A DNA stretch of 64,000 nt from a virus (taxonomy: Duplodnaviria; Caudoviricetes), in the IMG/VR virus record IMGVR_UViG_3300043432_000485, positions 32,001-96,000 of that record. One strand, written 5' to 3'. Every line of letters starts with the position of its first letter. Position 1 is the stretch's first letter. A model generated the notes under the pieces. It saw nothing but the letters and a program-made list of their open reading frames with translations, was not told where the DNA came from and made no database searches. This document shows, piece after piece, positions 2,112-19,731 of the stretch. The position numbers and the translations under genes are program-made.

Positions 2112-2118
2112 GTCTTGG

Positions 2119-2628
2119 CTATTTCATCGAAGGAACCTCGGAACGCTCGCGAGCCCGGATGAACATCAGCATCCTCCCGAGTTTGTTAAGCCCAGTCCCG
2201 TTCTTGCCGGAACCCCAGTAAGCATCTTTGGGGGCGTTCTCGATCAGCTCGACATCCCCGGTGTCGAGCAGTTTACTGCGCAGTTCTCTTCTCTGAGAGA
2301 ACTTGTGCGTCAGACCCATGAACATCATGTGGTCCTTGGTCAGGTCCAGCATGTAGCCATGCTGATCCCGGAACATCTCACGAAGCGCCGGGGTCCCCAC
2401 CTCGTCTTCCCAATCTGGGCGGCATTCAATCTGCCCGCCCCAGCGCTTGGCTATCCCCGGGGTGAGCGCGCTGCGGATCTGCAGTTGCACTGCCGGGTCA
2501 TCGCTCTTCATGCTCTGGTAGAAGTGCTCAACCGAAGGGTACTGAATGCCCTGGACCTCGAAGATTGCCCCGAAGAAGTTGGACAGGTACCCGTTAGGAC
2601 CCCGGTTGCTGTAGAACTTGAGAGTCAT
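2119..2628 (-). CDS. NADAR (YbiA-like) family protein
   Basis: YLSNF...YPSVEHFYQSMK...KFSQ...L..TGD.ELIENAP.DAYWG.G..G.G.N.LG.MLM; ATG overlaps upstream TGA. Confidence 0.85.
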   Translation of the reverse strand: MTLKFYSNRGPNGYLSNFFGAIFEVQGIQYPSVEHFYQSMKSDDPAVQLQIRSALTPGIAKRWGGQIECRPDWEDEVGTPALREMFRDQHGYMLDLTKDHMMFMGLTHKFSQRRELRSKLLDTGDVELIENAPKDAYWGSGKNGTGLNKLGRMLMFIRARERSEVPSMK

Positions 2629-2948
2629 GCCCACACTCGAATCTGGGCATTGGGATTCTCTATGCAAGCCTCTAGAACTCTAGTCACAAAGTCCACCAAC
2701 CCGTCGTAGGTTCCCCACCCATTCTCGGGGTCCATGGCTTTGAACCTCTCTGGTTCTGCCTTGAGTAGCGCGAGTCCCCTCTCTAGAGTCGTGATGGCGT
2801 CACCGGCCAGTTTGAATGCATTCTCGTCCGGGCGCCAAAGTACCTCGTACAATCCTGCCTCCTTGGCCATGCCAGCAAGATTGTGGGTGACGTTACCGCT
2901 GAACACCTGGGTGGGGCGCATCTCTTCGAGGTAGAAATCTAGGCTCAT
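2625..2948 (-). CDS. Conserved phage hypothetical protein (MSLD...NxTHNL...NGWG)
   Basis: Intact ORF with ATGA overlaps on both sides. Confidence 0.7.
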   Translation of the reverse strand: MSLDFYLEEMRPTQVFSGNVTHNLAGMAKEAGLYEVLWRPDENAFKLAGDAITTLERGLALLKAEPERFKAMDPENGWGTYDGLVDFVTRVLEACIENPNAQIRVWA

Positions 2949-3517
2949 GTCCGGCTCTCCTGGGCTGCCCAGTCTGAAGTGAATGGGGTTGGGTCGTTGG
3001 CAAGTAGTCTCAGCTCATTCAGGTACTGAGGGTCCGAAAACTGTCCCACGAACGGAGCCACCGAGAATGGTTTGCTTCGATGGTGAACCGGAATGCTCAC
3101 GGTGGGGGTTCCTTGTGCGCATGGCGGGAAGGTCAGGGTCGCCCCGAGCTTAGCGGTACGAAGCAGGGACAGCAATCCGGGCTCCTCTTCCATACCCTCA
3201 GGCCACCCATGGTCCTTGTATGGCCAGACTCTGCCATCCCAACCCAAATCCTCCAAGAAGAGGCAAACCTGCCGATCACTCTTGGGTGTGATCGGCAAGC
3301 CCATCGTCAGGCCGCCGATCGCCTTGATGCCCCCTTGTTCCAAGACCGTGAGCTGAAGCCCTAGCACGGGCCAGTTGGCTTTGCGTTGCTTGATCCACCC
3401 CAGCAGCGCGAAGGCGTGGTAACGACCCAAAGGGAACTTCCCATGCGAGACTGAAGCGGTGGGTACATCCTGCACCCCCCAAGCCTGGATGTAGTCCTTG
3501 GTTTGTTGATCGGTCAC
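2945..3517 (-). CDS. Hypothetical protein
   Basis: GTG start 7 nt after GGTGTAAT on the minus strand (3525-3532). Confidence 0.65.
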   Translation of the reverse strand: MTDQQTKDYIQAWGVQDVPTASVSHGKFPLGRYHAFALLGWIKQRKANWPVLGLQLTVLEQGGIKAIGGLTMGLPITPKSDRQVCLFLEDLGWDGRVWPYKDHGWPEGMEEEPGLLSLLRTAKLGATLTFPPCAQGTPTVSIPVHHRSKPFSVAPFVGQFSDPQYLNELRLLANDPTPFTSDWAAQESRT

Positions 3518-3539
3518 CTCTCCTATTACACCAAAACGA

Positions 3540-3569
3540 AGGGGCCAGAAGCTTGCGCTCCCAGCCCCT
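3540..3569 (-). terminator. Intrinsic terminator-like hairpin
   Basis: Minus strand AGGGGCTGGGAGC-GCAA-GCTTCTGGCCCCT followed by TCGTTTT, downstream of the secreted-protein pair. Confidence 0.6.
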
Positions 3570-3590
3570 CTTGGGTGTCACTCAGTCAGA

Positions 3591-3833
3591 TCACTGACTG
3601 CCGTCGTTGCAATCCGGGAGCCCGTCGCCCGCTCCCGTGGAGCAGTCCTCGAATCCGGTATCCGTGAGGGTGCACGAATCGGTGTCGGTCTGATCCGCGG
3701 AGTCCAGGACGCCGTCACCGTCCTTGTCCCCGTTGGTTGCACAAGCGGGAAGGCTGGTGTCGGCGAACCCGATAGCCGGGAACGAGAGCGCAAGCGCGCC
3801 AAGTAGAACGAACGTTGCTGTTAGCTTTTTCAT
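3591..3833 (-). CDS. Small secreted Asp/Cys-rich protein (TSP3-like Ca-binding motif)
   Basis: Signal peptide MKKLTATFVLLGALALSFPAIGFA; DKDGDGVLDSAD. Confidence 0.65.
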   Translation of the reverse strand: MKKLTATFVLLGALALSFPAIGFADTSLPACATNGDKDGDGVLDSADQTDTDSCTLTDTGFEDCSTGAGDGLPDCNDGSQ

Positions 3834-3871
3834 GGTTGTTGATTCCTTGAGAGTTGGCTGTTGGTGATGGC

Positions 3872-6070
3872 TTACTGGCAGGCCTTGGCCCAGCCGATGC
3901 CCTTGTCCCAGACGTTGATGGTGCCGGCGCTGCAGCCGAACTTGATTTCACCGGTGTCACTGCCGCGTTTGCACGCGAGGATTTGGCTGCAGTTGCAGCC
4001 GCCCTTCTGCAGCACTGAGTCACCAACGCTGTTTGGCTTGAGGGACTGAGTTGGAACAGGGCCGGACAGGTTGGTACCCGGGCAGAGGTCCACGTCGTCA
4101 CTCACTCCATCCAGGTCGCTGTCGCTGATGTAGAAGAGCGCCGTATTCTTGAGACCGTTTACGATGAGGGATGTTCCGGCTCCGGTGGAGCGGCACATCG
4201 TGTCTGGGGTGCGCCAAACGATGCAGGCTCCTGGGGCGGGGAGATCCGCCTTCTTGACCTTGACCGCTGTATTGGGGCAAGCACCTTGTGAGTCGATGGT
4301 TGCACCCGGGACGTCGTTGATGCAGAAGTCGCGGTTTGCGTACGGGATCGTGACCGACTTGGTGACACCCGGTGGCAGGGTTGCATTGATAGCGATCGCT
4401 GGCTTGGTGCTGCCCCCGTTACCATCGGACGCGGTCACGGTGATGACCTGAGAACCACCCACGGGTCCGGTACCAGGCGGGAACGTCACTCCGAAGTTTG
4501 AGCCGCCGGGCGTACTGATCGTGGCGGTGGTGGAGCCATCGGGGTTCGGAGTGGTGGTGGAGTTGCCGCCTGAGGTCTGGATGGGGATGCCCTGCACCAG
4601 TGAGCCGTAGCTCAGGACGCGATTGAGAGCATTGTCGACCACGAACAACCGTCCGTAGGTGGCATCCCATGTAACGCTGTTGGGGAACAACATTGATGCG
4701 GCACTTGCCGGCTGGTCCAGCCAGGTGAAGGTGCCGTCCTGGGTGTTTTGACTCACGTGACCACAACCCAGAATCTGATGAACAGGATCTGATCCTGGAT
4801 CAACGGCGCCACCGGTCAAACTCGGGTATCCGAGCACATTGGACGGCGGGAGCCCATTCTGGGTCTTGGTTTGTGCATCTCCGGAGATGTCATAGGAGAC
4901 GACTCGGCAGTTGTAGAAGTCCGCAACGAACAGCCGGCGACCAGCATTGTCCACCGCAGCGGCGGCTGGGGAGTTCAAGTATGGGCCACCACCGTACGTG
5001 ACGGGCAGGGCGTCATAGTTGGGCTGTCCAATGACCCAAGTGGAGGGTGCACCGTTCGCAACCACGGAGGACAGGTTCGCACCCGCCGAGTAACGCCATG
5101 CGCGTACGCCATTTTGGGTCGGAACGTAAAGCGCACCTTCCGTGGGATCCCACGCCGGTTTGCCCGGGAAGTTGATGCCGCACGCGTTGGGGGTGTGCGT
5201 GCCGACTGGGCCTGAACACGGGGCGTCGACTCCGCCTTCAGACACGAGACTCTGTTGTCCGAGGACTTTCACCGCTGCCATGTTGTTCGAAATGCCCGAA
5301 GACAAGTCGAAGAACATCACGCGATTGCCCTCAGCATCGGACACGATGAGGGTCTTGGAGTTCGCCTCGAATGCGAGCCCGAAGGGGGCTAGCGAACAAG
5401 CATTGATGCCAGAGGTGGCAGATCCACTGCAGAAGCGGTTCGGCTCCGTGGTGGTGAAGTCCGACTGACCCAACACGAACACCGAGGTCTCACCGTTGGT
5501 GTTCGTGTCCCCGATGTTGAAAAACAACACGCGGTGCTGCCAGTAGTCACTGACAGCCAGGTACTTCGCAGTACCGAGCTTGATCACCACTACACTGGTT
5601 GGGGAGTACAGGTTGCAAGCGTTAGCCGGACCGGGCCACGGCACATTCGGATCCGTGCTGTTGACGCAACCAACCGCTGGGTTCTGGAAGTTGCGTTCCA
5701 CGCTGGTATACGTGCCTTGGCCGAGCACGAACAGGGTGGGGGCATTGGTTGAGCCGTTGCGGACATCCTTGGCTAGGACCCGCTGGCCCCAGGACTCCAC
5801 GATGTACAGGATGCCGGTCTCAGGGTCGAAGTCCGCATCATTGGGGGCCGTCACCGTCTGGTCACTCGATGGCTGAAGCACCTCGAATGCCTCGATGTCA
5901 GTCAGGGGAACCCCTACCTGTTTCACCGGATGGTTGAGGTCCGGCTGGCCAATGACCCCACCTGCAGGCATCCCGTTGCTCAGAATGAGCTGGGCGGTTG
6001 CACCTGCTGCGATGGCCAACATTGCGCACGTGAACGCAATTGTTGCCGTTTTTGTGAATGGCTTCTTCAT
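3872..6070 (-). CDS. Large secreted NHL-repeat (beta-propeller) protein
   Basis: Signal peptide from MKKPFTK; repeated LxVxD..NRV...VLGQ units; C-terminal DSDLDGVSDDVDLCP. Confidence 0.75.
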   Translation of the reverse strand: MKKPFTKTATIAFTCAMLAIAAGATAQLILSNGMPAGGVIGQPDLNHPVKQVGVPLTDIEAFEVLQPSSDQTVTAPNDADFDPETGILYIVESWGQRVLAKDVRNGSTNAPTLFVLGQGTYTSVERNFQNPAVGCVNSTDPNVPWPGPANACNLYSPTSVVVIKLGTAKYLAVSDYWQHRVLFFNIGDTNTNGETSVFVLGQSDFTTTEPNRFCSGSATSGINACSLAPFGLAFEANSKTLIVSDAEGNRVMFFDLSSGISNNMAAVKVLGQQSLVSEGGVDAPCSGPVGTHTPNACGINFPGKPAWDPTEGALYVPTQNGVRAWRYSAGANLSSVVANGAPSTWVIGQPNYDALPVTYGGGPYLNSPAAAAVDNAGRRLFVADFYNCRVVSYDISGDAQTKTQNGLPPSNVLGYPSLTGGAVDPGSDPVHQILGCGHVSQNTQDGTFTWLDQPASAASMLFPNSVTWDATYGRLFVVDNALNRVLSYGSLVQGIPIQTSGGNSTTTPNPDGSTTATISTPGGSNFGVTFPPGTGPVGGSQVITVTASDGNGGSTKPAIAINATLPPGVTKSVTIPYANRDFCINDVPGATIDSQGACPNTAVKVKKADLPAPGACIVWRTPDTMCRSTGAGTSLIVNGLKNTALFYISDSDLDGVSDDVDLCPGTNLSGPVPTQSLKPNSVGDSVLQKGGCNCSQILACKRGSDTGEIKFGCSAGTINVWDKGIGWAKACQ

Positions 6071-6214
6071 ATGGATTTGCGGCTTCACCCGATGGGTACG
6101 GCAGCCGTTCCGGTGAATGGTTACGAGCATCTAACTACCTGGCCGTTTGGGTTTGGTCAATGGCCTATTCGGCTATTTTGACCCGCCCTGGGGTTTTTCG
6201 GTGTAATGGTGTTC

Positions 6215-6841
6215 ATGCTGATCGATGTGTCGAGAAGACCCGTGCGCCTGATCTTTGAGGAGTGCCCAACCATCATTGTGGTGCGCTCCATGCGAGTTAC
6301 AGGACAGGCTGACGGGCTGCTTCACCAGGACATCTCGTCCATGAACGTGTCTCGTTCTCCAGCGCGAACCAACACACTGGCTCCAAAGGTAGCGTTGCAC
6401 CAGAAGGGGTACGAGTACATCGAGACCATTCTCCCCGGTTCAGAGCAACCCCAGGAGCTTGGCTATCTCGAAAGTGAGGTAGCCCGTACCAGAGAAGCAA
6501 TCAGAAGGGGAGAGGTTAGGATCGCTCCCCCGCGCCCGCGGGTAGCACTGAGCAACGAGCCCTACTATGTGATCTCCGGGCATCAGGATCAGTTCGCAAA
6601 GCAGCTTGGGGTATGGAGGATCAACTTCGTCTCTGGGGCCGGCCCTAAGAGTCAGCGACTGTTGACCCTGTTGGACGAAACGCACGGCACGGTACTGTTC
6701 ACATGCCAGGTCCCTCCGGTATCCACCACAGATGGGATCTTCAAGATCAACACTCCACTGGAGCGCTACATTCGCCGCCCAGATGCAGCCCCTGGGTTGT
6801 GGAAGATGCTGCGGGAAGAGGGCGACGATGAAGTCGACTGA
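6215..6841 (+). CDS. Hypothetical protein
   Basis: ATG 7 nt after CGGTGTAAT (6199-6207); TTGACC at 6178-6183. Confidence 0.65.
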   Translation: MLIDVSRRPVRLIFEECPTIIVVRSMRVTGQADGLLHQDISSMNVSRSPARTNTLAPKVALHQKGYEYIETILPGSEQPQELGYLESEVARTREAIRRGEVRIAPPRPRVALSNEPYYVISGHQDQFAKQLGVWRINFVSGAGPKSQRLLTLLDETHGTVLFTCQVPPVSTTDGIFKINTPLERYIRRPDAAPGLWKMLREEGDDEVD

Positions 6842-7640
6842 CTATAACTGCCGCTGGTATGGAGGTGCCTACGGTAGCTTCAACTATGAGTCCGAATATT
6901 TCACACGTTGGGGAGCCCGTTGGGACTACTCGGCTGTGATCCGTGATTCTGAGGGGCCTAGGGATAGTGCCACCACTGTCATGGGTAGGCTGGACATTGA
7001 CGGGTTCCGTAGCCAGAAGACTAGGCGCTATCGTCCCACTGAATGGTCGGTGAGCTTGGAGTTAGGACACCACAAGCAAGGGGTGGCCACCGGGAAGTGT
7101 CGCTCTCTCCTGCAAGCCATGCGAGATGCCGATGCAGCTCTAACTCAAGACGTGGTAAGCCAGTTCTTGTCCGAGGTGTACTGTCTATCCCCTTTGACCG
7201 AAAGCGTGTATAGGTACGTCCATAAGACCCCTAGCTTGTTTGAACACCTAAGAGCTGGGAGCCCGGCTGAGCTGAAGCGCATCCAACTGCTGAACCCGCG
7301 TAACTGGATTCCTTGGATGTCAGATCTGGGGATTCGAGGGGAATCCAGTTGGGCACTAGGGGGCACGTCCAGCGCGCCCAACACAGGCACCTTCCTAACT
7401 GTCAGCTCTCAGGATGGGAAGCTCCGCGGTAGCATCACCATCCGTGAGAACTGGTCCACCACCTGGCAGTCAGATGAAGGAGTGCAGGAGCTTGCTAGAC
7501 GCCTCGGTTCCTGGACTCACGGATCTGAGTCGAACTCAGATCTTGATAGGGAGACGGGGGCATCGACGAGAACATGTACCGATACTCTTTCGGCACGCCC
7601 TGCAAGATCTCTTCTACATTGTCTTCTCCCCGGGGGTTGA
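6828..7640 (+). CDS. Hypothetical protein
   Basis: Overlaps previous gene end; 3' end overlaps the opposite-strand gene by about 145 nt. Confidence 0.5.
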   Translation: MKSTDYNCRWYGGAYGSFNYESEYFTRWGARWDYSAVIRDSEGPRDSATTVMGRLDIDGFRSQKTRRYRPTEWSVSLELGHHKQGVATGKCRSLLQAMRDADAALTQDVVSQFLSEVYCLSPLTESVYRYVHKTPSLFEHLRAGSPAELKRIQLLNPRNWIPWMSDLGIRGESSWALGGTSSAPNTGTFLTVSSQDGKLRGSITIRENWSTTWQSDEGVQELARRLGSWTHGSESNSDLDRETGASTRTCTDTLSARPARSLLHCLLPGG

Positions 7641-8190
7641 CCAAGAAGCCAACGTAGAGGTTCGACATCTCTTCCAGCATGGGTTGGATCTCGTGACCCC
7701 ACTTCGGGTCCAACAACGTCCGCAGAGAGTCTGTGCCCATGATGATGGTGCACCCCGGAAAGAGTCTGGCTTTCTCCAGGTAGGTGGCTCCTTGATCCAG
7801 GAACAACACATCGCGCTTCCCATGCAACCAATGCAGGCGGTCCAGCATGTCCGACAAAGACAACGGGGGCTTGTGCGGGGCATTGGTTGTGATCTGGAAG
7901 ACTGTGTATTCGTCCCCACAGTGAAAATGACCGTCATGTGCCGGATTGAAAGAGCCCGGGTACAAGACGGGGCTCTTGTCAGTCAGCTCCGCTAGCCTCC
8001 TGCCATCACGGGTGAAGAAAGGTCGGGCCAAGAGGGCCTTGCGGGCGTCGTCCGAGGCATCTACGATCTTGGAATAGCAGTAGCCTGGCAGCTCGGTCTC
8101 GACTCCCGCGGCATGAAGGATCATCATCAACCCGTCGGCGTCGGCGCAGTTACCGTCCCCAACTCTGGCGTCAACCCCTGCCTTGTCCAA
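7495..8190 (-). CDS. Cytidylyltransferase-superfamily nucleotidyltransferase, probably 5'-truncated
   Basis: YPGSFNPAHDGH (HxGH), MGTDS, C-terminal SSTQIR; only a TTG start without a clear RBS. Confidence 0.65.
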   Translation of the reverse strand: MDKAGVDARVGDGNCADADGLMMILHAAGVETELPGYCYSKIVDASDDARKALLARPFFTRDGRRLAELTDKSPVLYPGSFNPAHDGHFHCGDEYTVFQITTNAPHKPPLSLSDMLDRLHWLHGKRDVLFLDQGATYLEKARLFPGCTIIMGTDSLRTLLDPKWGHEIQPMLEEMSNLYVGFLVNPRGEDNVEEILQGVPKEYRYMFSSMPPSPYQDLSSTQIRESRNRGV

Positions 8191-8345
8191 GGTCGTCTCT
8201 GATCTTCTGCGTGCTCTTTCTCGCTGAAGAACTTCATGAACACGTAGGTGACATCACGCCTTTCGCTAGGTCTGGCTTGTGACTTACGTTGTTCTTTTCG
8301 ACGACGTGCGGCTCTTTTGGCTCGCTTTTTTATGGTATTGGACAC
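8127..8345 (-). pseudogene. 5' fragment of a basic protein gene, apparently joined to the nucleotidyltransferase locus
   Basis: GGAGG RBS and GTG start; sequence after ...FFSEKEHAED runs out of frame into the next gene. Confidence 0.4.
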
Positions 8346-8357
8346 TCCTGTCCCTCC

Positions 8358-9110
8358 TCACAGTTCGAAGTTGATTCCACGCCGGGTAGCGCGATCGTAA
8401 GCCTCTTTGTTGAAGCGGTAGAGACGTGCAGCACCACCGGTGCGCCGCTCCTTGACGGTCCCAGTTTCCTCTAAGAAGCCGGCCTTCTTGTTCAAGACAC
8501 GCAGTTTTTTGCGGAAGTTGCTGGGTTCTGGGTAAGGCTTATCAGGGGTCGCCTTACCCAGAATTGCCTGGTAGACCTTGCGGAGCTGTTCCAGCGTGAA
8601 TGTCTCGGGGAGCAGATTGAACCCCACCGGGGCGTAGCGGATCTTGGCCTGCAAGCGCTGCACCGCAGTCCGAAGAATCAGGGCGTGATCGAACGCCACC
8701 GAATCTTTCCCAAAAGACAGCGCCTCCCAAACGTCCACCCACTCGGCGCGGCTCGCGTCGGAACCGGCTTCAGGCTTGTGGTCTTGAGTGCGGACTAACG
8801 CATAGTGCGCCACCGAGAAAACGCGGCCCCGAGGGTCGCGCTCGGGAGCATCAAACGTCCCGAGCTGTTCGAGGTAAGCAACCTCGATGCCCGTCTCCTC
8901 TTGCATCTCGCGGCGCGCTGCTTCGTAAGAGGTCTCGCCCTTGAGGAACTCTATGAAGCCACCGGGGAGCGCCCACTTTCCCTTGAAGGGGTCTTCTGCA
9001 CGCTTGATCAGCACCACCTCCAAGCGCCAATCCGGGGTGAGCCCGAACAGGACACAGTCTACGGTGATGTCCGCTTTGGGGTAGTCGTAGGTGTATTTGG
9101 ATTTGGGCAT
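8358..9110 (-). CDS. nrtR: NrtR-like Nudix hydrolase plus C-terminal winged-helix regulator
   Basis: TVDCVLF, WALPGGF, REMQEETG Nudix box, FDH..I, LPETFTLEQL..VYQAILG, NFRKK, GGAARLYRF. Confidence 0.85.
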   Translation of the reverse strand: MPKSKYTYDYPKADITVDCVLFGLTPDWRLEVVLIKRAEDPFKGKWALPGGFIEFLKGETSYEAARREMQEETGIEVAYLEQLGTFDAPERDPRGRVFSVAHYALVRTQDHKPEAGSDASRAEWVDVWEALSFGKDSVAFDHALILRTAVQRLQAKIRYAPVGFNLLPETFTLEQLRKVYQAILGKATPDKPYPEPSNFRKKLRVLNKKAGFLEETGTVKERRTGGAARLYRFNKEAYDRATRRGINFEL

Positions 9111-9123
9111 CGGTTCTTTCAAT

Positions 9124-9172
9124 GTGGTATCTCTTACCACGTTCGATGAGTGGATTATGGTATCTGGTACCA
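9124..9172. promoter_or_regulatory. Two palindromic operator-like sites (GT-N7-AC core)
   Basis: GTGGTATCTCTTACCAC (9124-9140) and TGGTATCTGGTACCA (9158-9172), both followed by CGTT-containing identical flanks. Confidence 0.7.
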
Positions 9173-9181
9173 CGTTGTCAA
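9154..9181 (-). promoter_or_regulatory. Sigma70-like promoter for the nrtR-like gene
   Basis: Minus strand TTGACA (9181-9176), 16-nt spacer, CATAAT (9159-9154). Confidence 0.55.
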
Positions 9182-9271
9182 CGCGTTTTCTCAACTATCT
9201 TGTAAACGGTTGAAATGTGGCCCATTGCGGGTACTATTGCATATCGGTGTACTAGATGCTACACCGGCCAC

Positions 9272-10189
9272 ATGGGTTGTTTTGACTACAGCTGTGCCAT
9301 CTCTGGGCTGTCCATTGGATCCCAGGATCCCGTGCGCTTCCTGCTACTTACTCAGAACCCTGTCACCGATGAGAAGGGACATCGAGGGTGGAACCCTAAC
9401 TCCTGGTGGGTGCCTCGCTGCTTTCCCGTGCGCGCTCTTTACAGCCACTACGGCACCGTCGAGAACATCGAGCAGGGCGTAGGGTTTGACATCATGTTGG
9501 AGGGGCTCCGCCGGGACATCGTGACCCGGGAAGTCGGGGAGAACGAGTACCATGACGTCCCGGTTTGGCCCGACATGCCGTGGGACAAATTGATGGAGGC
9601 CCTTTGGGAAGAACGGGTCCTGGTCAAGATCGAACCTGCGATTGCGGTCCTCGCGACGATCAAGACCCCGCTTGTCGACTATGCGATGATCAGAGAAGAC
9701 GTGTGGCAGCGCTTGCTCCGCGTTCCCATCATCAACACGTTCACGGACAACACCCTGAGGATCAAGCACTTCCGGAAGGAGATCCGGAAGCTGTACTCAG
9801 AAGCCTTGGCTCACCGAGACGATAGTGTGAGGATCAAGGAGATCATGGACAAGGCGGGACAGCCAGATTTCGATTTCGATCAGGCGTGGGAGGATTTCCA
9901 CCACCCGCTCGCGTCTCTTGGTCTTCAGGTTCAGTTCGTCCCCGGAGTTGAGACTCATTGGCGGCTGCTGGTATCTCGCGGGCTGCCGATCGAGCAGGTT
10001 GAGGGCATCTTGGATTCGATCGCCGAACTCGGCTACTTGACCTGCATGCTGGCCAACCTCGGGCACCAGTGGAGGCCCTCCACCACGTACGGGATGCAAC
10101 ACGGGGACTTCCGTTTTCACACGCAATTCCTGCAGGCACTCGCGCAAGTTGGGAACAAACTTGCCAAGGAGCAAGAACAAAACGATTGA
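9272..10189 (+). CDS. Hypothetical phage protein (MGCF..SC.ISGL.I family)
   Basis: Long intact ORF downstream of CGGTGTACT. Confidence 0.65.
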   Translation: MGCFDYSCAISGLSIGSQDPVRFLLLTQNPVTDEKGHRGWNPNSWWVPRCFPVRALYSHYGTVENIEQGVGFDIMLEGLRRDIVTREVGENEYHDVPVWPDMPWDKLMEALWEERVLVKIEPAIAVLATIKTPLVDYAMIREDVWQRLLRVPIINTFTDNTLRIKHFRKEIRKLYSEALAHRDDSVRIKEIMDKAGQPDFDFDQAWEDFHHPLASLGLQVQFVPGVETHWRLLVSRGLPIEQVEGILDSIAELGYLTCMLANLGHQWRPSTTYGMQHGDFRFHTQFLQALAQVGNKLAKEQEQND

Positions 10190-10231
10190 CCCCCTCCCGA
10201 TCTTAGGTACCATTCATCCAGGAGACAACTC

Positions 10232-10657
10232 ATGCCCGACCAACGCCACGTTCTGCAAACCCTTCTGGAAGATTACGGCCTGCCGACCCGGAGCTACTCG
10301 GGGCGCGGCATGTACGGCAAACCCTGTCTTGGGGTGGAAGCCGGTGACCGGGATCTCCTGAAGGCGGTTTTTGAGATCGGCTTCGAGCTGGGGGAACGCA
10401 CCGGCGAAGATGAAGCGGAGAACAAAGACCGCGACCCGAACTACGCGCTCAAGCAGGAACGTGAGGCCATCACCAAGGCCCTGTCCAGCATGCGCCAAGA
10501 GTCTCTCGGGCTCGGGGTGATCACGTACTTCCCGGGGGTTCCTTTCGTGGAGAATGCGTCGGAGCAAGACTTCGACGGGTGTTCTAACTGTGACCTGCCA
10601 CTCTCCGAATGTGAGTGTTCCAGCTTCAGCATCCGGCTCTGTCGGCGATCGCGTTAG
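10232..10657 (+). CDS. Hypothetical protein (RSYSGRGMYGKxCLG motif)
   Basis: GGAG RBS; motif typical of phage proteins; C-terminal Cys cluster. Confidence 0.65.
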   Translation: MPDQRHVLQTLLEDYGLPTRSYSGRGMYGKPCLGVEAGDRDLLKAVFEIGFELGERTGEDEAENKDRDPNYALKQEREAITKALSSMRQESLGLGVITYFPGVPFVENASEQDFDGCSNCDLPLSECECSSFSIRLCRRSR

Positions 10658-10836
10658 GCATCAGCCTTGTGACGTAGGGACTCGACCCAGAGCTTCTGGT
10701 GCTCTGTCAAGTCCTTCCCATCTCTCAGCTCGGTGGAAAACCCTTCGAACGCAGTCCGCTCCCCCGGCGACAGATTCTTGGAGGCCAACAGCTTCCCGAT
10801 CAGGATCTTGTAGGAGGGCTTCTTCGGTTTGGGCAT
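10654..10836 (-). CDS. Small hypothetical protein
   Basis: ATG 7 nt after GGTGTATG on the minus strand. Confidence 0.6.
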   Translation of the reverse strand: MPKPKKPSYKILIGKLLASKNLSPGERTAFEGFSTELRDGKDLTEHQKLWVESLRHKADA

Positions 10837-10992
10837 CCTGATACATACACCAGTGAAATCGGTCACTTGCCGGTGTAACAGTGACGAAATGTTTCGGCTA
10901 TGAATCTGCGCACCCCATAAGTATTGACAGATGCCCCACTCCGGTGTATTCACAGAGAGCCAGCCTGCAGTCACTAGCAGCAGAGGAACTAC

Positions 10993-11223
10993 ATGATCAT
11001 CGATCACCCAACGATCCGACACGATACGCGTTTTGGCAGTGAATCGGCCAAGATGGTGCAGTGCGACTTTTGCCCCACCACGGCCCCCGTCGGGTTCGAC
11101 ATGCATGAAGCGGTGGACAAGGCGCGCTCGGCCGGGTTCATCACGATCCGCGGGCGGACCGCGATCTCTCCGCGCAAGTGGAGTTGCCCGAAGTGCACCG
11201 TCAGGCGTAACACCGCCTCGTAG
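10993..11223 (+). CDS. Small zinc-finger protein
   Basis: CDFC...CPKC; GAGG RBS. Confidence 0.6.
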   Translation: MIIDHPTIRHDTRFGSESAKMVQCDFCPTTAPVGFDMHEAVDKARSAGFITIRGRTAISPRKWSCPKCTVRRNTAS

Positions 11224-11240
11224 CTGGTGTAGATGGGAGC

Positions 11241-11444
11241 ATGTGGCAATTCATGTTCCCATCTAAAGCTCCCCTGGTGGAGGCTGTGGGGCGTCAGTAT
11301 CGACGCAAGCAGGACACCATGACCTAGGAGCTGGTGGCTATCGACACGACGGCTGACACGGTCAAGCTTCGCGGCCCCGGCTACGGCAAGGGCCACATGA
11401 CGATCAGCCGCACCGAGTTTCAAAAGGATTGGGTAGCAGCATGA
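11241..11444 (+). CDS. Small protein with an in-frame TAG at codon 29 (11325-11327)
   Basis: ATG 7 nt after GGTGTAGA; MWQFMFPSKAPLVEAVGRQYRRKQDTMT*ELVAIDTTADTVKLRGPGYGKGHMTISRTEFQKDWVAA; TGA overlaps the coaD ATG. Confidence 0.6.
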
Positions 11445-11977
11445 CCACAGCAGTTTACGCGGGAAGCTTCGACCCTGTTACATTGGGGCATCTGGACTTG
11501 ATCCTCAAGGCCAGCAAGTCGTTTCAAGAGGTCATCGTAGGAGTAGGTGCCAACTCCCAGAAGAAGCAGCCCTTGTTCGATCAAGACGAGCGAATCAAGC
11601 TGGTCCGAGGGGCCTTATCAGAGATTAGTGCCACGAAGTCAGGGCTCCTGAGCAACAGCACTCGGGACCGCATCTATGTGATGCCATTTAATGGCTTGCT
11701 GGTGGACTTCTGCCTAGCACAATCGGCAACCGTGATCGTGCGCGGGCTGCGCGCCGTAAGTGACTTCGAGGTCGAGATGGCTATTGCACATGCCAACAGC
11801 AGCATGTGCCAGCACATCGATACCGTGTTCTTCCCCACCAAGCCCGAGCACTCTTTCGTGTCCAGCTCCACCGTCAAAGAGATCGCCTTCCATCCCAGCA
11901 CCACCGGATGGGCCAGCCTTCACCAATACGTGACCTCCAATGTGTTGGAAGCTCTTCGAGAGAAGAAGTTCAAATGA
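11441..11977 (+). CDS. coaD: Phosphopantetheine adenylyltransferase
   Basis: AVYAGSFDPVTLGHLD, IVRGLRAVSDFEVE, FVSSSTVKEIA. Confidence 0.9.
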   Translation: MTTAVYAGSFDPVTLGHLDLILKASKSFQEVIVGVGANSQKKQPLFDQDERIKLVRGALSEISATKSGLLSNSTRDRIYVMPFNGLLVDFCLAQSATVIVRGLRAVSDFEVEMAIAHANSSMCQHIDTVFFPTKPEHSFVSSSTVKEIAFHPSTTGWASLHQYVTSNVLEALREKKFK

Positions 11978-12216
11978 GCCCCCTACTTGGGCTCTACTGC
12001 ATCGGCGCCATCGTGGCTGGGATCATTGAGGGTCACTATCAGTACGGGCGATTCAAGAATCGAGCCCAGCTGGGATTGAGTACCTCCGAAGCGGTCCAAG
12101 AAGCCGCATTCTACGTGCTGGGGACTGCCATCTCTTGGCCGCCCGTCGCTGCATTCTGGTTGCTCATGGTGCTGATCTTCAAATTGTGGGATCTCTACGT
12201 CGCATGGAAACGTTGA
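11974..12216 (+). CDS. Small membrane protein
   Basis: Two hydrophobic segments; ATGA overlap with coaD. Confidence 0.55.
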   Translation: MSPLLGLYCIGAIVAGIIEGHYQYGRFKNRAQLGLSTSEAVQEAAFYVLGTAISWPPVAAFWLLMVLIFKLWDLYVAWKR

Positions 12217-12234
12217 GTCGGTGTAGTCTAGGGT

Positions 12235-12747
12235 ATGCGAAAACCCATTGTCTATACTGCCGGTCCGCTCGGGTTCTCTGAGGTTGGCCGCGCTTTCCAC
12301 AACGGCACGTTCGTACCCATGCTTGAGCGGCTCGGCTTCGAGGTGCTGGATCCTTGGAAACTGACCCCTGATGAGTTGGTGCGCCCCGTGCTGGACATGC
12401 CGTACGGGCAAGCCAAGAAGAGCACCCTTGAGACCCTCAACATCGTGATCGGGCGGAACAACCGCAATGCGATCCAAGCCTGTGACCTGGTGGTCGCCGT
12501 GCTGGATGGAACCGACGTTGACAGTGGGACCGCGGCAGAGGTCGGCTACGCGGCCGGGCTCAACAAGCCGATCGAGGGCTATCGGGGAGATTTCCGCCGG
12601 GCATCAGACAACGACGGCAGTGTGGTGAACCTGCAGGTCGAGTTCTTCATGATGCATCATTCGTACCATGGTCGGATTGCAACCAACATGAGTGAGCTGG
12701 AAGCCAACCTTCTCGGGTACTTGAGAATGTTCTCGGCTCTGAGGTGA
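12235..12747 (+). CDS. Nucleoside 2-deoxyribosyltransferase / deoxynucleotide N-glycosidase family
   Basis: YTAGPLGFS, CDLVVAVLDG..VDSGTAAEVGYA..LNKP. Confidence 0.85.
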   Translation: MRKPIVYTAGPLGFSEVGRAFHNGTFVPMLERLGFEVLDPWKLTPDELVRPVLDMPYGQAKKSTLETLNIVIGRNNRNAIQACDLVVAVLDGTDVDSGTAAEVGYAAGLNKPIEGYRGDFRRASDNDGSVVNLQVEFFMMHHSYHGRIATNMSELEANLLGYLRMFSALR

Positions 12748-12759
12748 TGAGTCTACTGG

Positions 12760-13218
12760 CTAGCTGTGGTCACGATTGTTCCGCCCACAAAAAGTTGGAG
12801 ATTGGGAGTCGCAGTTGGGGCACACGAAACGGAGATTGTCAATCCGATCATCATTGCGTTCACCGTTAATGTGGTCTAAACGCAGGACAAGAGGTTTCCC
12901 TCTCCACTCTGGTCCCATGCCACATTCTGCGCAATTGTAGGGAATCAGACTATGAGTCAGGATCACGCGTTTCAGAGTCTTACGGGCATAGGATCCGTTG
13001 GGAACAAGAGCCGACTCCGGAGTAGCCAGTGGACGTCGAGTCACCGCTTTCCAGTGTTCTGTACTCAACCCTAGCTTCTGTACCGTGTTTCTTACTAGCG
13101 CATAGCTCGTGCCAACTCTGGCTATCCCCAGATATTGGATGGCTCTCAGAGTGGATGTGGTACGAGAGACCGCTTCTATGATTTCTTGTTCAGTAGGTGT
13201 ACGAGATTTTTTACCCAT
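12760..13218 (-). mobile_element. HNH homing endonuclease immediately downstream of the tRNA
   Basis: CAEC...LRLDHINGERNDDRIDNLRFVCPNCDS; AT-richer than flanks. Confidence 0.85.
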
Positions 13219-13238
13219 ATGTAGGTTAGGACTTAGAA

Positions 13239-13313
13239 TGGCGGTCCCGAGGTGATTCGAACACCCCTACTGCAATTTTAGAGGTTGCTGCCTGGCCACT
13301 AGGCTACGGGACC
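13239..13313 (-). tRNA. tRNA with CUA anticodon (amber suppressor type), encoded CCA end
   Basis: GGTCCCG/CGGGACC acceptor stem; GCCT/AGGC D stem; GCAAC-CT CTA AA-ATTGC anticodon arm; GGGTG-TTCGAAT-CACCT T arm; G73-CCA. Confidence 0.88.
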
Positions 13314-13426
13314 ATGTCCTACATCTACACCATTTTATGGATTCTGTCGCGCTCTTTTGTCTGGAGTTTTTGACCGCCCAAGTGTCTTAGGGGTAAGACT
13401 TCCCTCTGAACCAAAGGACACTGAAC

Positions 13427-14299
13427 ATGGGTAAGACAGCAATCAAGGCTCCTCGCGGCAAGACCAGCTTCCGGCTCGATCCGAACGACCCGCGCCTGCG
13501 TCTCATCGGGCACGACACCAACCACAAGGATGGCGAGCACATCTGCTACCAGGAGCGCGCCCACCTTCCGGTGGATGAGGAGTTCGCGCAGTACATGGCG
13601 GTCCATGGCTGCACCAGCGTCCTCATCGTCTTCCGGGACGGGGACTTCCTGGACATCGTGGTCGGCCGCCGCCGTCTCAAGGCTGCACGCCGCGCCAACG
13701 AGATCCGAGCTGAGCGCGGGCTGGACCCGATCCGCATCGAAGTCCAGGTCTTCGACGGTACGCCCCTCGAAGTTCTGGCCCTCATGATCACCGAGAACTC
13801 GCGGCGTCTCGAACCGCACGCCATTCAGATGGCGCTCGATCTCAACCGCTTCCTCCGCCTGGGGGCGACTCTTACGGAGGCAGCGTTCACGATCGGCAAG
13901 TCCGAGCAGACGGTCACCAACTACATCAGCCTTCTGCGCCTCTCGACTCCGGTGCAGGAAGCGGTTGCCCGCGGTGACCTCGCGGTGTCGGCGGCCATCG
14001 AACTGCTGAGCCTCACACGCGACGAGCAGACGGTCGAGCTGGTGAGCTTGCTGGCAAAGGGCGAGCGCCCGACGGCCGCCAACGTCAACGCGGCGGTCCG
14101 TACCAAGAAGTCCGGTGAGGCGGTTTCCCCCGCGCCCAAGACGCGCACTCTCCGCAAGCTGATCGCAGCGGAGGGCGCCGAGGAAGTGCTCGGGGAGAAC
14201 GGGATCGCGCTCATCCGCTTCGTGCTCGGCGAGCTGCCGGCGCGCAACATCAAGGGCCTGACCGAGCTGCTCCGCAAGGTGGAGAGCAAGAAGGCCTGA
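13427..14299 (+). CDS. ParB/Spo0J-like protein with HTH
   Basis: IVVGRRRLKAA, ITENSRRLEP, IGKSEQTVTNYISLLRL; strongly GC3-biased codons. Confidence 0.75.
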   Translation: MGKTAIKAPRGKTSFRLDPNDPRLRLIGHDTNHKDGEHICYQERAHLPVDEEFAQYMAVHGCTSVLIVFRDGDFLDIVVGRRRLKAARRANEIRAERGLDPIRIEVQVFDGTPLEVLALMITENSRRLEPHAIQMALDLNRFLRLGATLTEAAFTIGKSEQTVTNYISLLRLSTPVQEAVARGDLAVSAAIELLSLTRDEQTVELVSLLAKGERPTAANVNAAVRTKKSGEAVSPAPKTRTLRKLIAAEGAEEVLGENGIALIRFVLGELPARNIKGLTELLRKVESKKA

Positions 14300-14309
14300 C
14301 CAACAACCA

Positions 14310-14337
14310 ACGCCGCCCGGGGAAACCTGGGCGGCGT
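14310..14337 (+). terminator. GC-rich hairpin after the ParB-like gene
   Basis: ACGCCGCCCGGG-GAAA-CCTGGGCGGCGT; no strong U tract. Confidence 0.5.
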
Positions 14338-14355
14338 ATCGGTGTAATCATAGCG

Positions 14356-15036
14356 GTGCGGAACAGAGCCCACAAGAACCTATCCCTGAGTTACTACCAA
14401 GAAGGTGGTGCCCCAGAGGTATGCGCCACGCTCAATCTGACACCTCCGGATACCAGGCAGTACGTGCTCCGGATGTTGGTGCACCACCCCATACATGGGT
14501 GGGAGATCCCGTCAGACTTGGCTTGGTTGGCCCCCGGGATCGCGCTGGCCGTCGACTACCAAAAGTCGGTACTGCACAGAGAGGTGGCCTACTGCTATGT
14601 CACCGTCCGACATGGGGAGGTAACCTCCAGCACGGATGATGTATGGCATGTGGACGGCTTTTCGATGCGAGAACCTCACTTGCCGGAGCACGACTACCTC
14701 TGGTGTGACCGCAGTCCTACCGAGTGTTACACGGCAGGCGTGCGTGTGCCGGATGACTTTGATCCGATGCACCACAACCTACACTGGCTCTTCCAGGACG
14801 TGATCCCTGAGGGAGCCCCCGTTCACACTTTACCGACACGAACGCTGGTGGTGATGGACCCCTACCACATCCACCGGCGGCCCAAGATGCCCATGGGAGC
14901 GCATCGAACTCTGGTGCGTATCTCCATGTTACCTATACCCATTTTGACCCCGGATTGCGCCGTCAACCCGGCATACCCTCCGACGGTGTTGGACCGAGAA
15001 GACATTCGTCTGAAGTTGGCGCGGTACCCAATTTAA
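14356..15036 (+). CDS. Putative 2OG-Fe(II) oxygenase-fold protein
   Basis: WHVDG (HxD), distal IHRRP, RTLVRIS; GTG start 7 nt after CGGTGTAAT. Confidence 0.55.
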   Translation: MRNRAHKNLSLSYYQEGGAPEVCATLNLTPPDTRQYVLRMLVHHPIHGWEIPSDLAWLAPGIALAVDYQKSVLHREVAYCYVTVRHGEVTSSTDDVWHVDGFSMREPHLPEHDYLWCDRSPTECYTAGVRVPDDFDPMHHNLHWLFQDVIPEGAPVHTLPTRTLVVMDPYHIHRRPKMPMGAHRTLVRISMLPIPILTPDCAVNPAYPPTVLDREDIRLKLARYPI

Positions 15037-15072
15037 CCCTGGAGTTCTTTCGCGCTGAAGTGTAGTAAAGGC

Positions 15073-16785
15073 ATGCCCTGCTACGAAGTACAATACCACA
15101 TGAACAAACCATCTAAAACCCGATTCTGCCCTCTCAACCGCAAGCTCCTTGCCGCATATCCAAGCGGAGAAGAGCAGATCGCCCTCGGAGAGCAAGTGGC
15201 CCTCAAGGTGTTCAAAAGCCGGGCCACGTTCCCCTACACTCGCATCATCGAGATCGTGGGGATGATGCAGGTGGGTAAAACTCTTACCGTCAAGGCGGCG
15301 ATCAACAAGCTGACTAGTCTCGCCCCGGAACTGCGCCCATTGCTCATGTACTTCATGAGCCAGAACCAGAACATCAATAAGGTTCAAGCTGAGGACGATC
15401 TAGATCCTGACCCGAGTTCCAAGGACATAGGATGTGAACCTAACGCCATGTGTGAAGATTACATCGGCTTACACCCAAGTGCATTGAAGCAGTTCCTTGG
15501 TGGGAGGTTGGCTGGTAAACGCGCAGACGATGATGGAAAGCTTCGTTATTTTAGGGACTGGCGCAAATTGTTAGCTCGTGGTCATCAGCTCATCTTAGCG
15601 TTTGACGAGGACCATCAAGCGCTGAATCGGAACGGGCAACTTAGCAAGCTCTTTTCAGCACTTGGCATCAGCTTCCGCGACGGGCAAGAAACCATCCCGG
15701 AAAACGTAATGATATTGGCCATAGGTGCCACTGGGTGGCCTACGCGCCTAAAAGGTGTTGAGCGAGTGAAGGTGCCGGAGACCAGGGACTACTTGAGTCC
15801 TGAGGGTCTCTTTCCCCGTCTTCATCACATTACCGAGGAAGTTGTGGATGACAATGGGGAGGTCACCACTTCGTTCACAAAGTTTCTCAAGAGGTGTGCC
15901 AAAAAGCAGCCTATGAGCCTGGTCGTTCAAGCTTCTGGAGACAAGCACCTACGTGGGCACCAGGCTATAGCAAAGGCATATCGGGCTCACTACAAGAGTT
16001 TGGGGGTTCCGCGGGTCTCAGTGGTGTCCTACGGATCTACCGTTGCTTGCGACAAGCCGGTAGAGGAGTTTCGAAAGGACATGCTCCGTAAGCCTACGGA
16101 GCCAACCCTCAGACTGCTCATCAACAGCTACGGTTGTGGCATGCGTCTTGACGCTGAGATGTCCAGGTACATCTGTGGTCGCTGGCTAGGTTGTGGGGTG
16201 AAGCCGGGACAGTCGTTTGCGGACGTCCAAGCCGATGTGTGGGCTCAACGTCTGGGCCGAGATTGTGGACGTAGAAAGCGTCATCTAACCTATCCAATCG
16301 CTTGTCACGCCGAGTTCATGAAGTGGGTGATAAAGCAGATGCGCGCTGACATCCCACTCAAAGGAACCTACACGACCTCCAAAGTCAAAGGACGGCGCAC
16401 TCAAGGTGGGGTGAAGGTTTATCGAGAACTAGTGGCGGTCACTGAGAAAGTCGCACGCGCACGCTACTGGTCTGAAAAGGATGGAGAGAAACTTCCCAAC
16501 TGCGTGCGGCCAGGTGGCCGTACCGTCAGTACAGGTAAGAGAAATCGTGACATCTTTCGCCTGATGCTTGGCGGCAACTCTATCGGCACAAGGCATCACC
16601 ATCGTGAGTTTTGCTACATCGAAGTGCCGACTCCAGGGTATGAAGATTCATTTAAAGAGTTCAAGGCCAAGTACCCGGAATTCTTCAAAGAAAATGGCGG
16701 TACCGGTTACGTGGAAATGGTCCGCGTCACGGCGGCAAACGACACGTTCACAGTCCCGCACAAAAAGTCAAGCATGATGGCCTGA
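15073..16785 (+). CDS. SF2 helicase-like ATPase
   Basis: GMMQVGKT (Walker A-like), AFDEDH (DExH), IGAT, QRLGR. Confidence 0.55.
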   Translation: MPCYEVQYHMNKPSKTRFCPLNRKLLAAYPSGEEQIALGEQVALKVFKSRATFPYTRIIEIVGMMQVGKTLTVKAAINKLTSLAPELRPLLMYFMSQNQNINKVQAEDDLDPDPSSKDIGCEPNAMCEDYIGLHPSALKQFLGGRLAGKRADDDGKLRYFRDWRKLLARGHQLILAFDEDHQALNRNGQLSKLFSALGISFRDGQETIPENVMILAIGATGWPTRLKGVERVKVPETRDYLSPEGLFPRLHHITEEVVDDNGEVTTSFTKFLKRCAKKQPMSLVVQASGDKHLRGHQAIAKAYRAHYKSLGVPRVSVVSYGSTVACDKPVEEFRKDMLRKPTEPTLRLLINSYGCGMRLDAEMSRYICGRWLGCGVKPGQSFADVQADVWAQRLGRDCGRRKRHLTYPIACHAEFMKWVIKQMRADIPLKGTYTTSKVKGRRTQGGVKVYRELVAVTEKVARARYWSEKDGEKLPNCVRPGGRTVSTGKRNRDIFRLMLGGNSIGTRHHHREFCYIEVPTPGYEDSFKEFKAKYPEFFKENGGTGYVEMVRVTAANDTFTVPHKKSSMMA

Positions 16786-16872: not shown

Positions 16873-17052
16873 ATGGAATCCATCAAACCCGCCCCATCAC
16901 CTGATTCCGTGCGCCATGCGATGGTCCTGCACCGTCTGGCGAAGCACCCTTTCGAGAGAAGGATTCCAGGCCGCCTCGTACAACAAGACGGCCTGGATAT
17001 CCACATGGTATGCGGGGTATGCTCAGAAGTGATCTATGTGCTGAGCAACTAG
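16873..17052 (+). CDS. Small hypothetical protein (59 aa, CxxC near C-terminus)
   Basis: Read manually: MESIKPAPSP...HMVCGVCSEVIYVLSN*; downstream of GGTGTAAG. Confidence 0.5.
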   Translation: MESIKPAPSPDSVRHAMVLHRLAKHPFERRIPGRLVQQDGLDIHMVCGVCSEVIYVLSN

Positions 17053-17402
17053 CGGGAGAGGGCCAGGGGTAGAGAGCTAGTGATCCTCCTCCCCTCGGGT
17101 CCGAGCGCGATTGCAGTCAGCTCGTTGTTGCGATCCGGCTCCCTGAATCTGGACACCTGGATGTACCGGCCTTCAGCTTTCTTGGCCAGTGCCTCCAAGG
17201 CATCCTCATTGGGAGCCACCAGTAGCGCTAGGGTGTTGGACTCTTGGTGCCATTGCTTGGCTACCTATCCATGTTCGAAAATGAACTCGGTTATGGCATG
17301 TATTGATTGTACTGCCTGTTGTGCATAGCTTAGATCAGACCTTACAATCACGTATAGTTTCGAGATACGTGATCGCCGTTCGCATTGCTGTGGTGTTGTC
17401 AT
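17049..17402 (-). CDS. Peptidyl-tRNA hydrolase 2 (PTH2)-like protein with an in-frame TAG at 17267-17265
   Basis: Read manually: KLYVIVRSDLSYAQQAVQSIHAITEFIFEHG*VAKQWHQESNTLALL...FREPDRNNELTAIALGP...SSLPLAL; absent from the ORF track. Confidence 0.7.
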
Positions 17403-18554: not shown

Positions 18555-18881
18555 TCAATCTACGTCATCGGAGTCCTCATCAGCATCAGGGTCCATACCG
18601 GCTAGAATCATGGCATCGAAGTCCAGGTAGCGGACTGCCCACCAGCCTATGATTTCTTTGTCCTTGAGATCCGGGTACCGGGGCCTGTCCTTAGCGTCGT
18701 AGTACCTGGCTTTCAGGTCCTCCATCGTGTAAGGGATGTGCGTTTCATGTCTGCGACGTCGACCATCTTCATAGGTATAGCGCCGCAGCCCTAGGATGGA
18801 TTCGAAAAGCTCATGGTTGGCACATGAGACCTGATACTCTTCCGCACTCATCGGAACCACACCAAACACGCGGGCCGCCAT
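18555..18881 (-). CDS. Hypothetical protein
   Basis: Intact ORF in a tightly packed minus-strand run. Confidence 0.55.
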   Translation of the reverse strand: MAARVFGVVPMSAEEYQVSCANHELFESILGLRRYTYEDGRRRRHETHIPYTMEDLKARYYDAKDRPRYPDLKDKEIIGWWAVRYLDFDAMILAGMDPDADEDSDDVD

Positions 18882-19210: not shown

Positions 19211-19566
19211 TCGGCAGCCTCCGTGACCTGGGCCACTACCGGCGCCGCTGCATTCAACCACTGCTCGATAGCTTCGCTGGAAAGTGCCAGCCCTCGCTGA
19301 TCAGCCATGGCTTTCATCCCACGGTTGATCCAGTAGAGGACATTGCGATCGTACTTGGGCTCCACCACATGATGGGGGATTCCGCGCAACATCGCGTAGC
19401 ACAACAACAGGCATCGGGTGTCGCGGCCGTAGCTGCGCTTGTCGTCCCAATGCTGCCAGCGGTCCATACCGCTAGACCCATGGATCAGCTTGCGGATCTC
19501 GCGACTCTCCGCTTCACGTTGACGTAACTCTGCTTTCAATTCCGGGAACTTAGACTTCTTGCTCAT
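19207..19566 (-). CDS. Hypothetical protein
   Basis: AGGAG RBS; TTGACA...TATATT promoter-like sequence upstream at about 19690-19714. Confidence 0.65.
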   Translation of the reverse strand: MSKKSKFPELKAELRQREAESREIRKLIHGSSGMDRWQHWDDKRSYGRDTRCLLLCYAMLRGIPHHVVEPKYDRNVLYWINRGMKAMADQRGLALSSEAIEQWLNAAAPVVAQVTEAAE

Positions 19567-19731
19567 GACAATTTCTCCTGTGACTGGGTGTTGACTCGTT
19601 GAAGACAACACGTCACAGGAGGGCCACGCGCGCGAGCCCAACTAGCAATCTACCAGAGATGTCCGTGAATCTGCATAGTGGGCCTAATATAGTGGCTATT
19701 GCCTACCTGTCAAGAGACAAGTAGAAAAATC

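Follow-up and report, generated by a model that had tools for sequence, protein, structure and literature searches.

A recent in-frame amber codon upstream of coaD in a freshwater phage that carries a tRNA with the anticodon CUA

The window analysed here, by which we mean the whole 64-kb stretch of DNA under study, comprises bases 32001-96000 of a virus record that is 203,362 bp long and has a GC content of 56%, a record which was excised by IMG/VR as a 'provirus' and whose completeness is put at ~43% by CheckV. On its plus strand lies a small gene of 67 codons (11241-11444) that opens with an ATG at 11241-11243, meets an in-frame TAG at codon 29 (11325-11327), runs on for 38 sense codons and ends in a TGA at 11442-11444, this stop overlapping the ATG (11441-11443) of the pantetheine-phosphate adenylyltransferase gene coaD (11441-11977, plus strand) in the four-letter junction ATGA. 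Reading the sequence again gives the same layout as the first-pass annotation had described, and the downstream gene matches TIGR01510 at 156.5 bits (cut-off 103.3) as well as Pfam CTP_transf_like. Further along, both on the minus strand, are a tRNA gene with the anticodon CUA, of the amber suppressor type (13239-13313; ARAGORN, Rfam RF00005), and a PTH2-like gene (17049-17402) that also has an internal TAG, at codon 46 (17265-17267), within a Pfam PTH2 domain that spans it; the terminator of this gene is itself a TAG. The internal TAGs matter for annotation, in that pipelines split the small gene, of which they call just a 36-aa fragment (P0004), and make no full-length call for the PTH2-like gene. 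The identical 36-aa fragment is found in a 340,944-bp contig in the protein database.

The surroundings of the small gene, at approximately 2000-16000 of the window and 1-14000 of L001, a related contig of 266 kb, form a neighbourhood of NAD and nucleotide metabolism, with genes for a NUDIX-NrtR protein, a nucleoside 2-deoxyribosyltransferase, CoaD and a ParB-HTH protein, to which the relatives' version adds NAMPT, NADAR, a Macro domain and a 2',5'-RNA-ligase/LigT-like gene. Its appearance is that of a host-takeover type of region, early or accessory. The INPHARED phage collection yielded no relatives by megablast, blastn or tblastn.

The start of the small gene is preceded by a start-associated motif, GGTGTA(GA), present here as the 8-mer GGTGTAGA (11226-11233, plus strand), with 9 nt between the 6-mer core and the ATG. 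It had been claimed that the 8-mer stands exactly 7 nt before the ATG, as in at least 12 other genes; this is so for the small gene, whereas the wider claim holds for the GGTGTA core but not for the 8-mer. The latter occurs at 11 sites in the 203-kb record and has an ATG exactly 7 nt later at two of them, while 27 of the 119 GGTGTA sites are followed by an ATG at 9-10 nt, as against about two for each other spacing. GGTGTA is 18-fold enriched upstream of predicted starts and keeps the +9/+10 spacing in relatives (33 of 117 sites in G001 and 20 of 82 in G002). It is thus a true start-associated signal, which makes the ATG at 11241 credible as the start of a gene. In the form (T)CGGTGTA(R), with an ATG 9-10 nt on, the motif marks some 27 genes, examples in the window being those at 756, 6200, 12220, 29366, 32452, 42300, 47325 and 51095. 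Its distance from the ATG exceeds normal Shine-Dalgarno geometry. It may be a phage promoter element serving near-leaderless mRNAs, or else a special initiation signal; a further copy at 13326-13331 (minus strand), which precedes the CUA tRNA's 5' end by 12 nt and is missing at the tRNAs of L001 and L011, favours the promoter reading. Between 10600 and 13500 there was no sigma-70 promoter or terminator of note. The gene upstream of the small gene, of 76 aa (10993-11232), ends TAG-CTG-GTG-TAG, the second TAG falling within GGTGTAGA, and as both of these tandem stops are TAG, they provide no back-up against an amber suppressor.

The two parts separated by the TAG had been taken for one gene of 67 aa, and the homologues bear this out. 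A search of 5.8 billion proteins, together with an exhaustive HMMER search, recovered seven homologues, all of them intact, with lengths of 63-68 aa and identities of 38-98%. Their alignment with the product of read-through, of 67 codons, extends from one end to the other, and none ends at codon 28. Two separate genes as the ancestral state, one of 28 aa and the other of 36 aa from a GTG at 11334, were considered and rejected, the homologues being continuous and the GTG, in whose place L001 has ATT and L004 has GTA, not being a conserved start. Compared with L001, which has the same gene order, pS is ~0.8 (saturated) and pN is 0.15 for codons 1-28 and 0.10 for codons 30-67; pN being low relative to pS in both halves, both are coding in one frame and under purifying selection. 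The coding signal that flanks the TAG is the strongest among the in-frame stops of the record (rank 1 of 60). A full-length product in the window genome requires that UAG be read through, as had been proposed.

The small protein has no family match in Pfam or PHROG, and a pattern search of IMG/VR found no close relative. AlphaFold2, run on the seven-sequence alignment, returned a small five-stranded barrel with one helix (mean pLDDT 81), to which the nearest folds, all of them weak matches, are NusG-KOW/Tudor (E 0.01-0.2, TM 0.55-0.6) and DUF1653-like clusters, so that the protein is predicted to be an SH3-like beta-barrel of the KOW, Tudor or DUF1653-like kind. In this model Trp29 opens strand 2, a position from which it follows that neither the 28-aa nor the 36-aa fragment could be expected to fold as a barrel. 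Huge Ig-repeat proteins also matched the 67-aa protein (E ~1e-6 to 1e-4), but the targets are Big_9/He_PIG repeats, and we take the resemblance to be one of beta-strand composition rather than homology.

At the position of the TAG, seven of seven homologues have tryptophan, in the invariant context T-x-x-W-E, and at the DNA level the codon is TGG in the three contigs L003, L001 and L004. L003, a contig of 742 bp at 96.3% nucleotide identity to the window, differs from it within the ORF by the TAG base and one synonymous change, and by nothing else; the 38 codons downstream of the TAG show zero differences from this nearest intact strain, the allele being too young for decay to be visible. Since TGG is found in every homologue, L003 included, the TAG is derived and is not a conserved recoding site, and on these comparisons a G-to-A transition produced this nonsense allele very recently, at a tryptophan that is otherwise invariant. 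A conserved or designed read-through site is not supported, given Trp in all seven homologues, among them those of the syntenic L001 and L030. The continuous, selected ORF that programmed amber read-through calls for is present and the conservation of the stop among orthologues is absent, while both marks of a recent amber allele, a single substitution from TGG and intact close relatives, are found.

TAG is the consensus at 11325-11327 in three assemblies, namely the JGI contig L010 and the Logan contigs of the runs X1 and X2, the latter two at a depth of 17-18; apparently all are from one freshwater sample. In the runs X3 and X4 position 11326 lies outside the coverage. Since 26 nt of the window (12883-12908) are deleted from X2 and L010, these are separate assemblies rather than copies of one. 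The allele was inspected in contigs, which cannot reveal minority variants. The mutated G of 11326 lies within a CCTGG (CCWGG site, 11322-11326), where deamination of 5-methylcytosine on the opposite strand would yield G-to-A; a C5-methyltransferase (PF00145) was not found in the record, nor was CCWGG depletion seen in it, and a Dcm-type hotspot behind the change is speculation.

The CUA tRNA had been placed about 2 kb from the small gene and ARAGORN puts it at 1.9 kb. It scores 51.3 bits against the Rfam tRNA family and is the only tRNA of the 203-kb record, a statement that covers this record and not the full genome. Its cloverleaf is canonical, with G18G19, a GG in the 7-nt D-loop, a 5-nt variable loop, a TTCGAAT T-loop and A36-A37-A38, and it has the discriminator G73, a short variable arm, the anticodon loop CUCUAAA and an encoded CCA end. 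Pyrrolysine tRNAs have a short D-loop lacking GG, a 3-nt variable loop and a non-canonical T-loop, and the label tRNA-Pyl, which ARAGORN gave to all four CUA-anticodon tRNAs, was rejected on the strength of this canonical cloverleaf. L001 and L011/G001 (208 kb) likewise have a CUA tRNA at this locus, flanked by the deoxyribosyltransferase and ParB genes, and that of G001 is its only tRNA. The three are widely diverged, with compensatory changes at 10 of 20 stem pairs around an invariant UCUAAA loop, a pattern which indicates that the amber-reading anticodon is under selection in the clade.

What the tRNA carries can be narrowed down from its sequence to three candidates, Gln, Glu and Trp. The bacterial Tyr, Leu and Ser types are excluded by G73 and the short variable arm; BLAST of the window tRNA against phages and E. 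coli gave no match, and the L001 tRNA matched mixed isotypes (Asn, Arg, Lys and Trp). The loop CUCUAAA is presumably one base away from the CUCCAAA of E. coli tRNA-Trp, and the acceptor stems of the relatives' tRNAs (G1-C72, U2-A71) we take to be Glu-like rather than Trp-like by identity rules. CUA suppressors derived from tRNA-Trp in E. coli are charged mainly with Gln.

The tRNA is followed immediately downstream by a weak HNH-endonuclease ORF of the same orientation (12760-13218, minus strand), the frame of which is broken by the 26-nt deletion in X2 and L010, both apparently from the window's own sample. An HNH gene is lacking in L001, whose tRNA is inverted relative to that of the window and rather different in sequence; together these observations suggest that a mobile element has reshaped the tRNA locus.

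Across the record as a whole, the phage does not recode TAG. The crude gene set has 147 TGA, 51 TAG and 48 TAA stops, TAG terminates 20 of the 100 genes with homologues in G001/G002, and in 13 of 15 testable cases the relatives' stops fall within 0-3 codons of the place where the TAG-ended gene stops; in-frame coding continuation is no commoner past TAG than past TAA or TGA. The suppressor tRNA(CUA) of a TAG-recoded (code 15) genome is thus present here without its many internal TAGs and rare TAG terminators. An intrinsic screen, in which a 3-periodic Markov model was applied at each stop and one and the same frame was required to outscore the other five both before and after it, ranked the TAG of the small gene first and that of the PTH2-like gene fifth of 60, and the other top-ranked candidates that were examined, by adjacent start codons or by homology, proved to be neighbouring genes sharing a frame. 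In a protein alignment to G001/G002 covering ~98 kb, the PTH2 TAG was the sole internal stop to which we give credence, and neither TAA nor TGA was seen inside a gene; the corresponding whole-record comparison of G001 with G002 was too noisy to use, on account of off-frame matches between close relatives. Two internal stops were therefore found in 203 kb, both of them TAG.

The second of these, at codon 46 of the PTH2-like gene, is likewise private to the window genome. The codon is Ala in L001 and Glu in L011, and it is variable among 120 homologues (E in 50, D in 15, A in 12, Q in 7 and Trp in none).

Two other TAGs on the minus strand are shared with L001. A short ORF, MQIHGHLW-TAG (19565-19675 in the window and 16660-16765, likewise minus, in L001), lies behind a conserved TTGACA...TATATT promoter and runs on in frame past the TAG to an RGPP motif, its end overlapping the ATG of the next gene. 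In L001 the sequence at and around the TAG is almost the same, and the indel that lies between this codon and RGPP has a length of 6 nt, a multiple of three; a TAG leader common to the window and L001 suggests that the clade has UAG sites that matter. Ahead of an HD-domain gene, ATG-ACG-TAG (18560-18568) follows a GAGGA and is kept in L001 (~15390, minus strand); these three codons, of which the TAG (18560-18562) is codon 3, overlap the 3'-terminal coding sequence of the gene before them, and there is an ordinary ATG 7 codons later. Codons 27-29 of the small gene likewise read ATG-ACC-TAG.

The junction with coaD is the other feature of the locus that bears on the effect of the TAG. A 4-nt ATGA overlap of the small gene with the next gene is found in five lineages, the next gene being coaD in the window, L001 and L030 and a different one in L004 and L031. 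The ribosome-binding site of coaD had been called weak, and it is: only an AAGGA is found, 12 nt upstream, and there is no GGTGTA motif. The recurrence of the overlap and the lack of a good Shine-Dalgarno sequence or GGTGTA at coaD make translational coupling of the small gene to coaD plausible from sequence; RNA structure masking the coaD start did not go beyond that of shuffled controls (z 0.9). The same G-to-A change that made the TAG converts GGGAG to AGGAG, which stands 3 nt before the in-frame GTG at 11334 (11326-11336, plus strand) as a candidate re-initiation site for the 36-aa C-terminal fragment, and initiation there could pass ribosomes on to coaD without suppression.

The reading we prefer, although we rate its chances as no better than even, is that of a recent amber allele buffered by the resident suppressor tRNA. 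The ancestral state would have been a 67-aa barrel gene coupled stop to start with coaD, in which the Trp29 codon TGG mutated to TAG within the phage population. Translation without suppression would stop after 28 residues, 114 nt before coaD, with no barrel made and the coupling lost, while with tRNA(CUA) some ribosomes would probably read the UAG and finish the 67 aa at the ATGA junction. This would make the allele not null but leaky, and would explain how it could reach consensus frequency. We infer that the tRNA is expressed, charged and active in suppression, that a product lacking Trp29 works and that coaD depends on the coupling. Several features together favour an active suppressor and a leaky amber at Trp29, namely that the internal TAGs match the anticodon of the tRNA, that they are close to it and that the clade has a conserved TAG leader. 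A strong suppressor should be costly in a genome where TAG ends ~20% of genes at conserved positions, which argues that suppression would be weak at best. Against buffering, a protein made by read-through may not work well if the residue inserted is other than Trp, and the locus lies among accessory genes, where the phage may simply tolerate a knockout.

Such toleration leads to what is perhaps the plainest account, a knockout of a dispensable small gene in which the tRNA plays no part and coaD is served by its own initiation or by re-initiation at GTG 11334; we regard it as possible, if rather unlikely. A single transition at an invariant residue, with the closest strain intact, is what it would look like, and TAG is the likeliest nonsense outcome: given the codon usage of the record, 56% of random nonsense mutations yield TAG, and the chance that both internal stops would be TAG is ~0.32, for which reason we do not count their shared identity as evidence that suppression acts. 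That TAG is the normal, conserved terminator of about a fifth of genes also argues against efficient suppression, the absence of the small gene from the relatives G001 and G002 shows it to be dispensable in the clade, and the AGGAG which the mutation itself created before the in-frame GTG could sustain the flow of ribosomes to coaD. Against a knockout it counts that the phage retains a canonical CUA tRNA under selection and that both internal stops of the 203 kb not only match its anticodon but also lie within 4 kb of it, at 1.9 and 4.0 kb, for which a rough chance estimate is (8/203)^2, or ~0.002. The lack of decay past the TAG also speaks against it, though the youth of the allele makes this weigh little.

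The first-pass annotation had raised a further option, that suppression controls coaD through coupling, and in its full form this would be an evolved amber gate, with the small protein, and via coupling also coaD, made only once the phage tRNA(CUA) accumulates. The proximity of the cognate tRNA 1.9 kb away, the ATGA overlap in five lineages ahead of genes that include a coaD without a good Shine-Dalgarno sequence or GGTGTA, and the presence of a second TAG-bearing gene and a conserved TAG leader within the same 8.5 kb would all suit a gate. We nevertheless consider it improbable, as TGG stands at this position in 7/7 homologues, including L003, L030 and L001, and the last of these has the same gene order and carries the tRNA as well; an invariant Trp is moreover a poor position for a switch unless Trp is inserted, and the TAG of the PTH2-like gene is likewise lacking in L001 and L011.

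Highly improbable, in our view, is that TAG is read as Trp, or that this is an early and ambiguous reassignment of TAG, the codon being effectively sense and the gene fully functional. The TAG does lie exactly at an invariant Trp, and G73, the short variable arm and a CUCUAAA loop near that of E. coli tRNA-Trp would be in keeping with a tryptophan tRNA. The record has two internal TAGs only, the second of them at a site with E, D, A or Q and with Trp in none of 120 homologues, TAG is not depleted as a terminator, the relatives' acceptor stems are presumably Glu-like, and E. coli suppressors of this anticodon derived from tRNA-Trp are mainly charged with Gln; all of these stand against it. Reassignment as such has a route in the proposal that acquisition of a suppressor lets in-frame stops accumulate (bioRxiv 10.1101/2021.08.26.457843). 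Finally, a sequencing or assembly artefact at 11326 is barely credible: every TAG assembly is from one sample and was seen as contigs only, but three separate assemblies agree, at a depth of 17-18, with X2 and L010 set apart by their deletion.

Taken by itself, the amber allele of the small gene is ordinary and its value is in the context, a natural coexistence of a phage suppressor tRNA with fresh in-frame TAGs while TAG still ends about one in five genes. Should read-through by the preferred route of buffering be real, the locus would provide a testable example of a resident suppressor that buffers nonsense mutations. A broader proposal, which we put forward as doubtful, is that this clade of huge freshwater phages keeps a lone suppressor tRNA while TAG is still an ordinary terminator, and that the strain-specific TAGs around the tRNA (at Trp29 of the small gene and codon 46 of the PTH2-like gene) are the first visible step of stop-codon capture, in which genes expressed together with the tRNA would tolerate new amber codons or even come to use them as gates on their expression; if true, this would be a natural 'ambiguous intermediate' in a high-GC phage in which TAG had not been depleted beforehand.

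One of the closest parallels is with the amber genetics of T4, where phage amber mutants are rescued by suppressor tRNAs, including the phage-borne 'psu' suppressor tRNA mutants of T4 itself. In both cases a single change from a sense codon to UAG is joined in the same genome by a tRNA(CUA) that could restore the full-length product at reduced yield. Here, in contrast, both allele and suppressor occur naturally, in a freshwater phage that is uncultivated, and the suppressor is the wild-type state conserved in the clade rather than a laboratory mutant, its suppression being putative. A second comparison is with prfB, whose in-frame UGA is an autoregulatory stop and belongs to a class of programmed sites that are conserved across orthologues. 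As there, the stop of the small gene lies inside a single functional ORF, and the way it is decoded would determine how much product is made, perhaps also from a coupled gene downstream; unlike such sites, the TAG is absent from every homologue examined.

The third comparison is with the code 15 phages (crAss-like, Lak and others), in which TAG is read as Gln and Sup-CUA tRNAs are encoded (Borges et al., bioRxiv 10.1101/2021.08.26.457843). These share with the window genome the occurrence of a phage tRNA(CUA) together with in-frame TAG in phage genes. They differ from it in several respects, since here there are 2 internal TAGs in 203 kb and TAG ends ~20% of genes, the GC content is 56% and not low, the TAGs are in early or accessory genes and not in structural or lysis genes, and the TAG of the small gene replaces Trp and not Gln. 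In the model of the same authors, the gain of a suppressor tRNA allows otherwise lethal in-frame stops to accumulate before recoding (bioRxiv 10.1101/2021.08.26.457843). Buffering of the kind we favour for the small gene would correspond to this step proposed to precede stop-codon reassignment in phages, placed here outside the low-GC gut lineages from which it was described.
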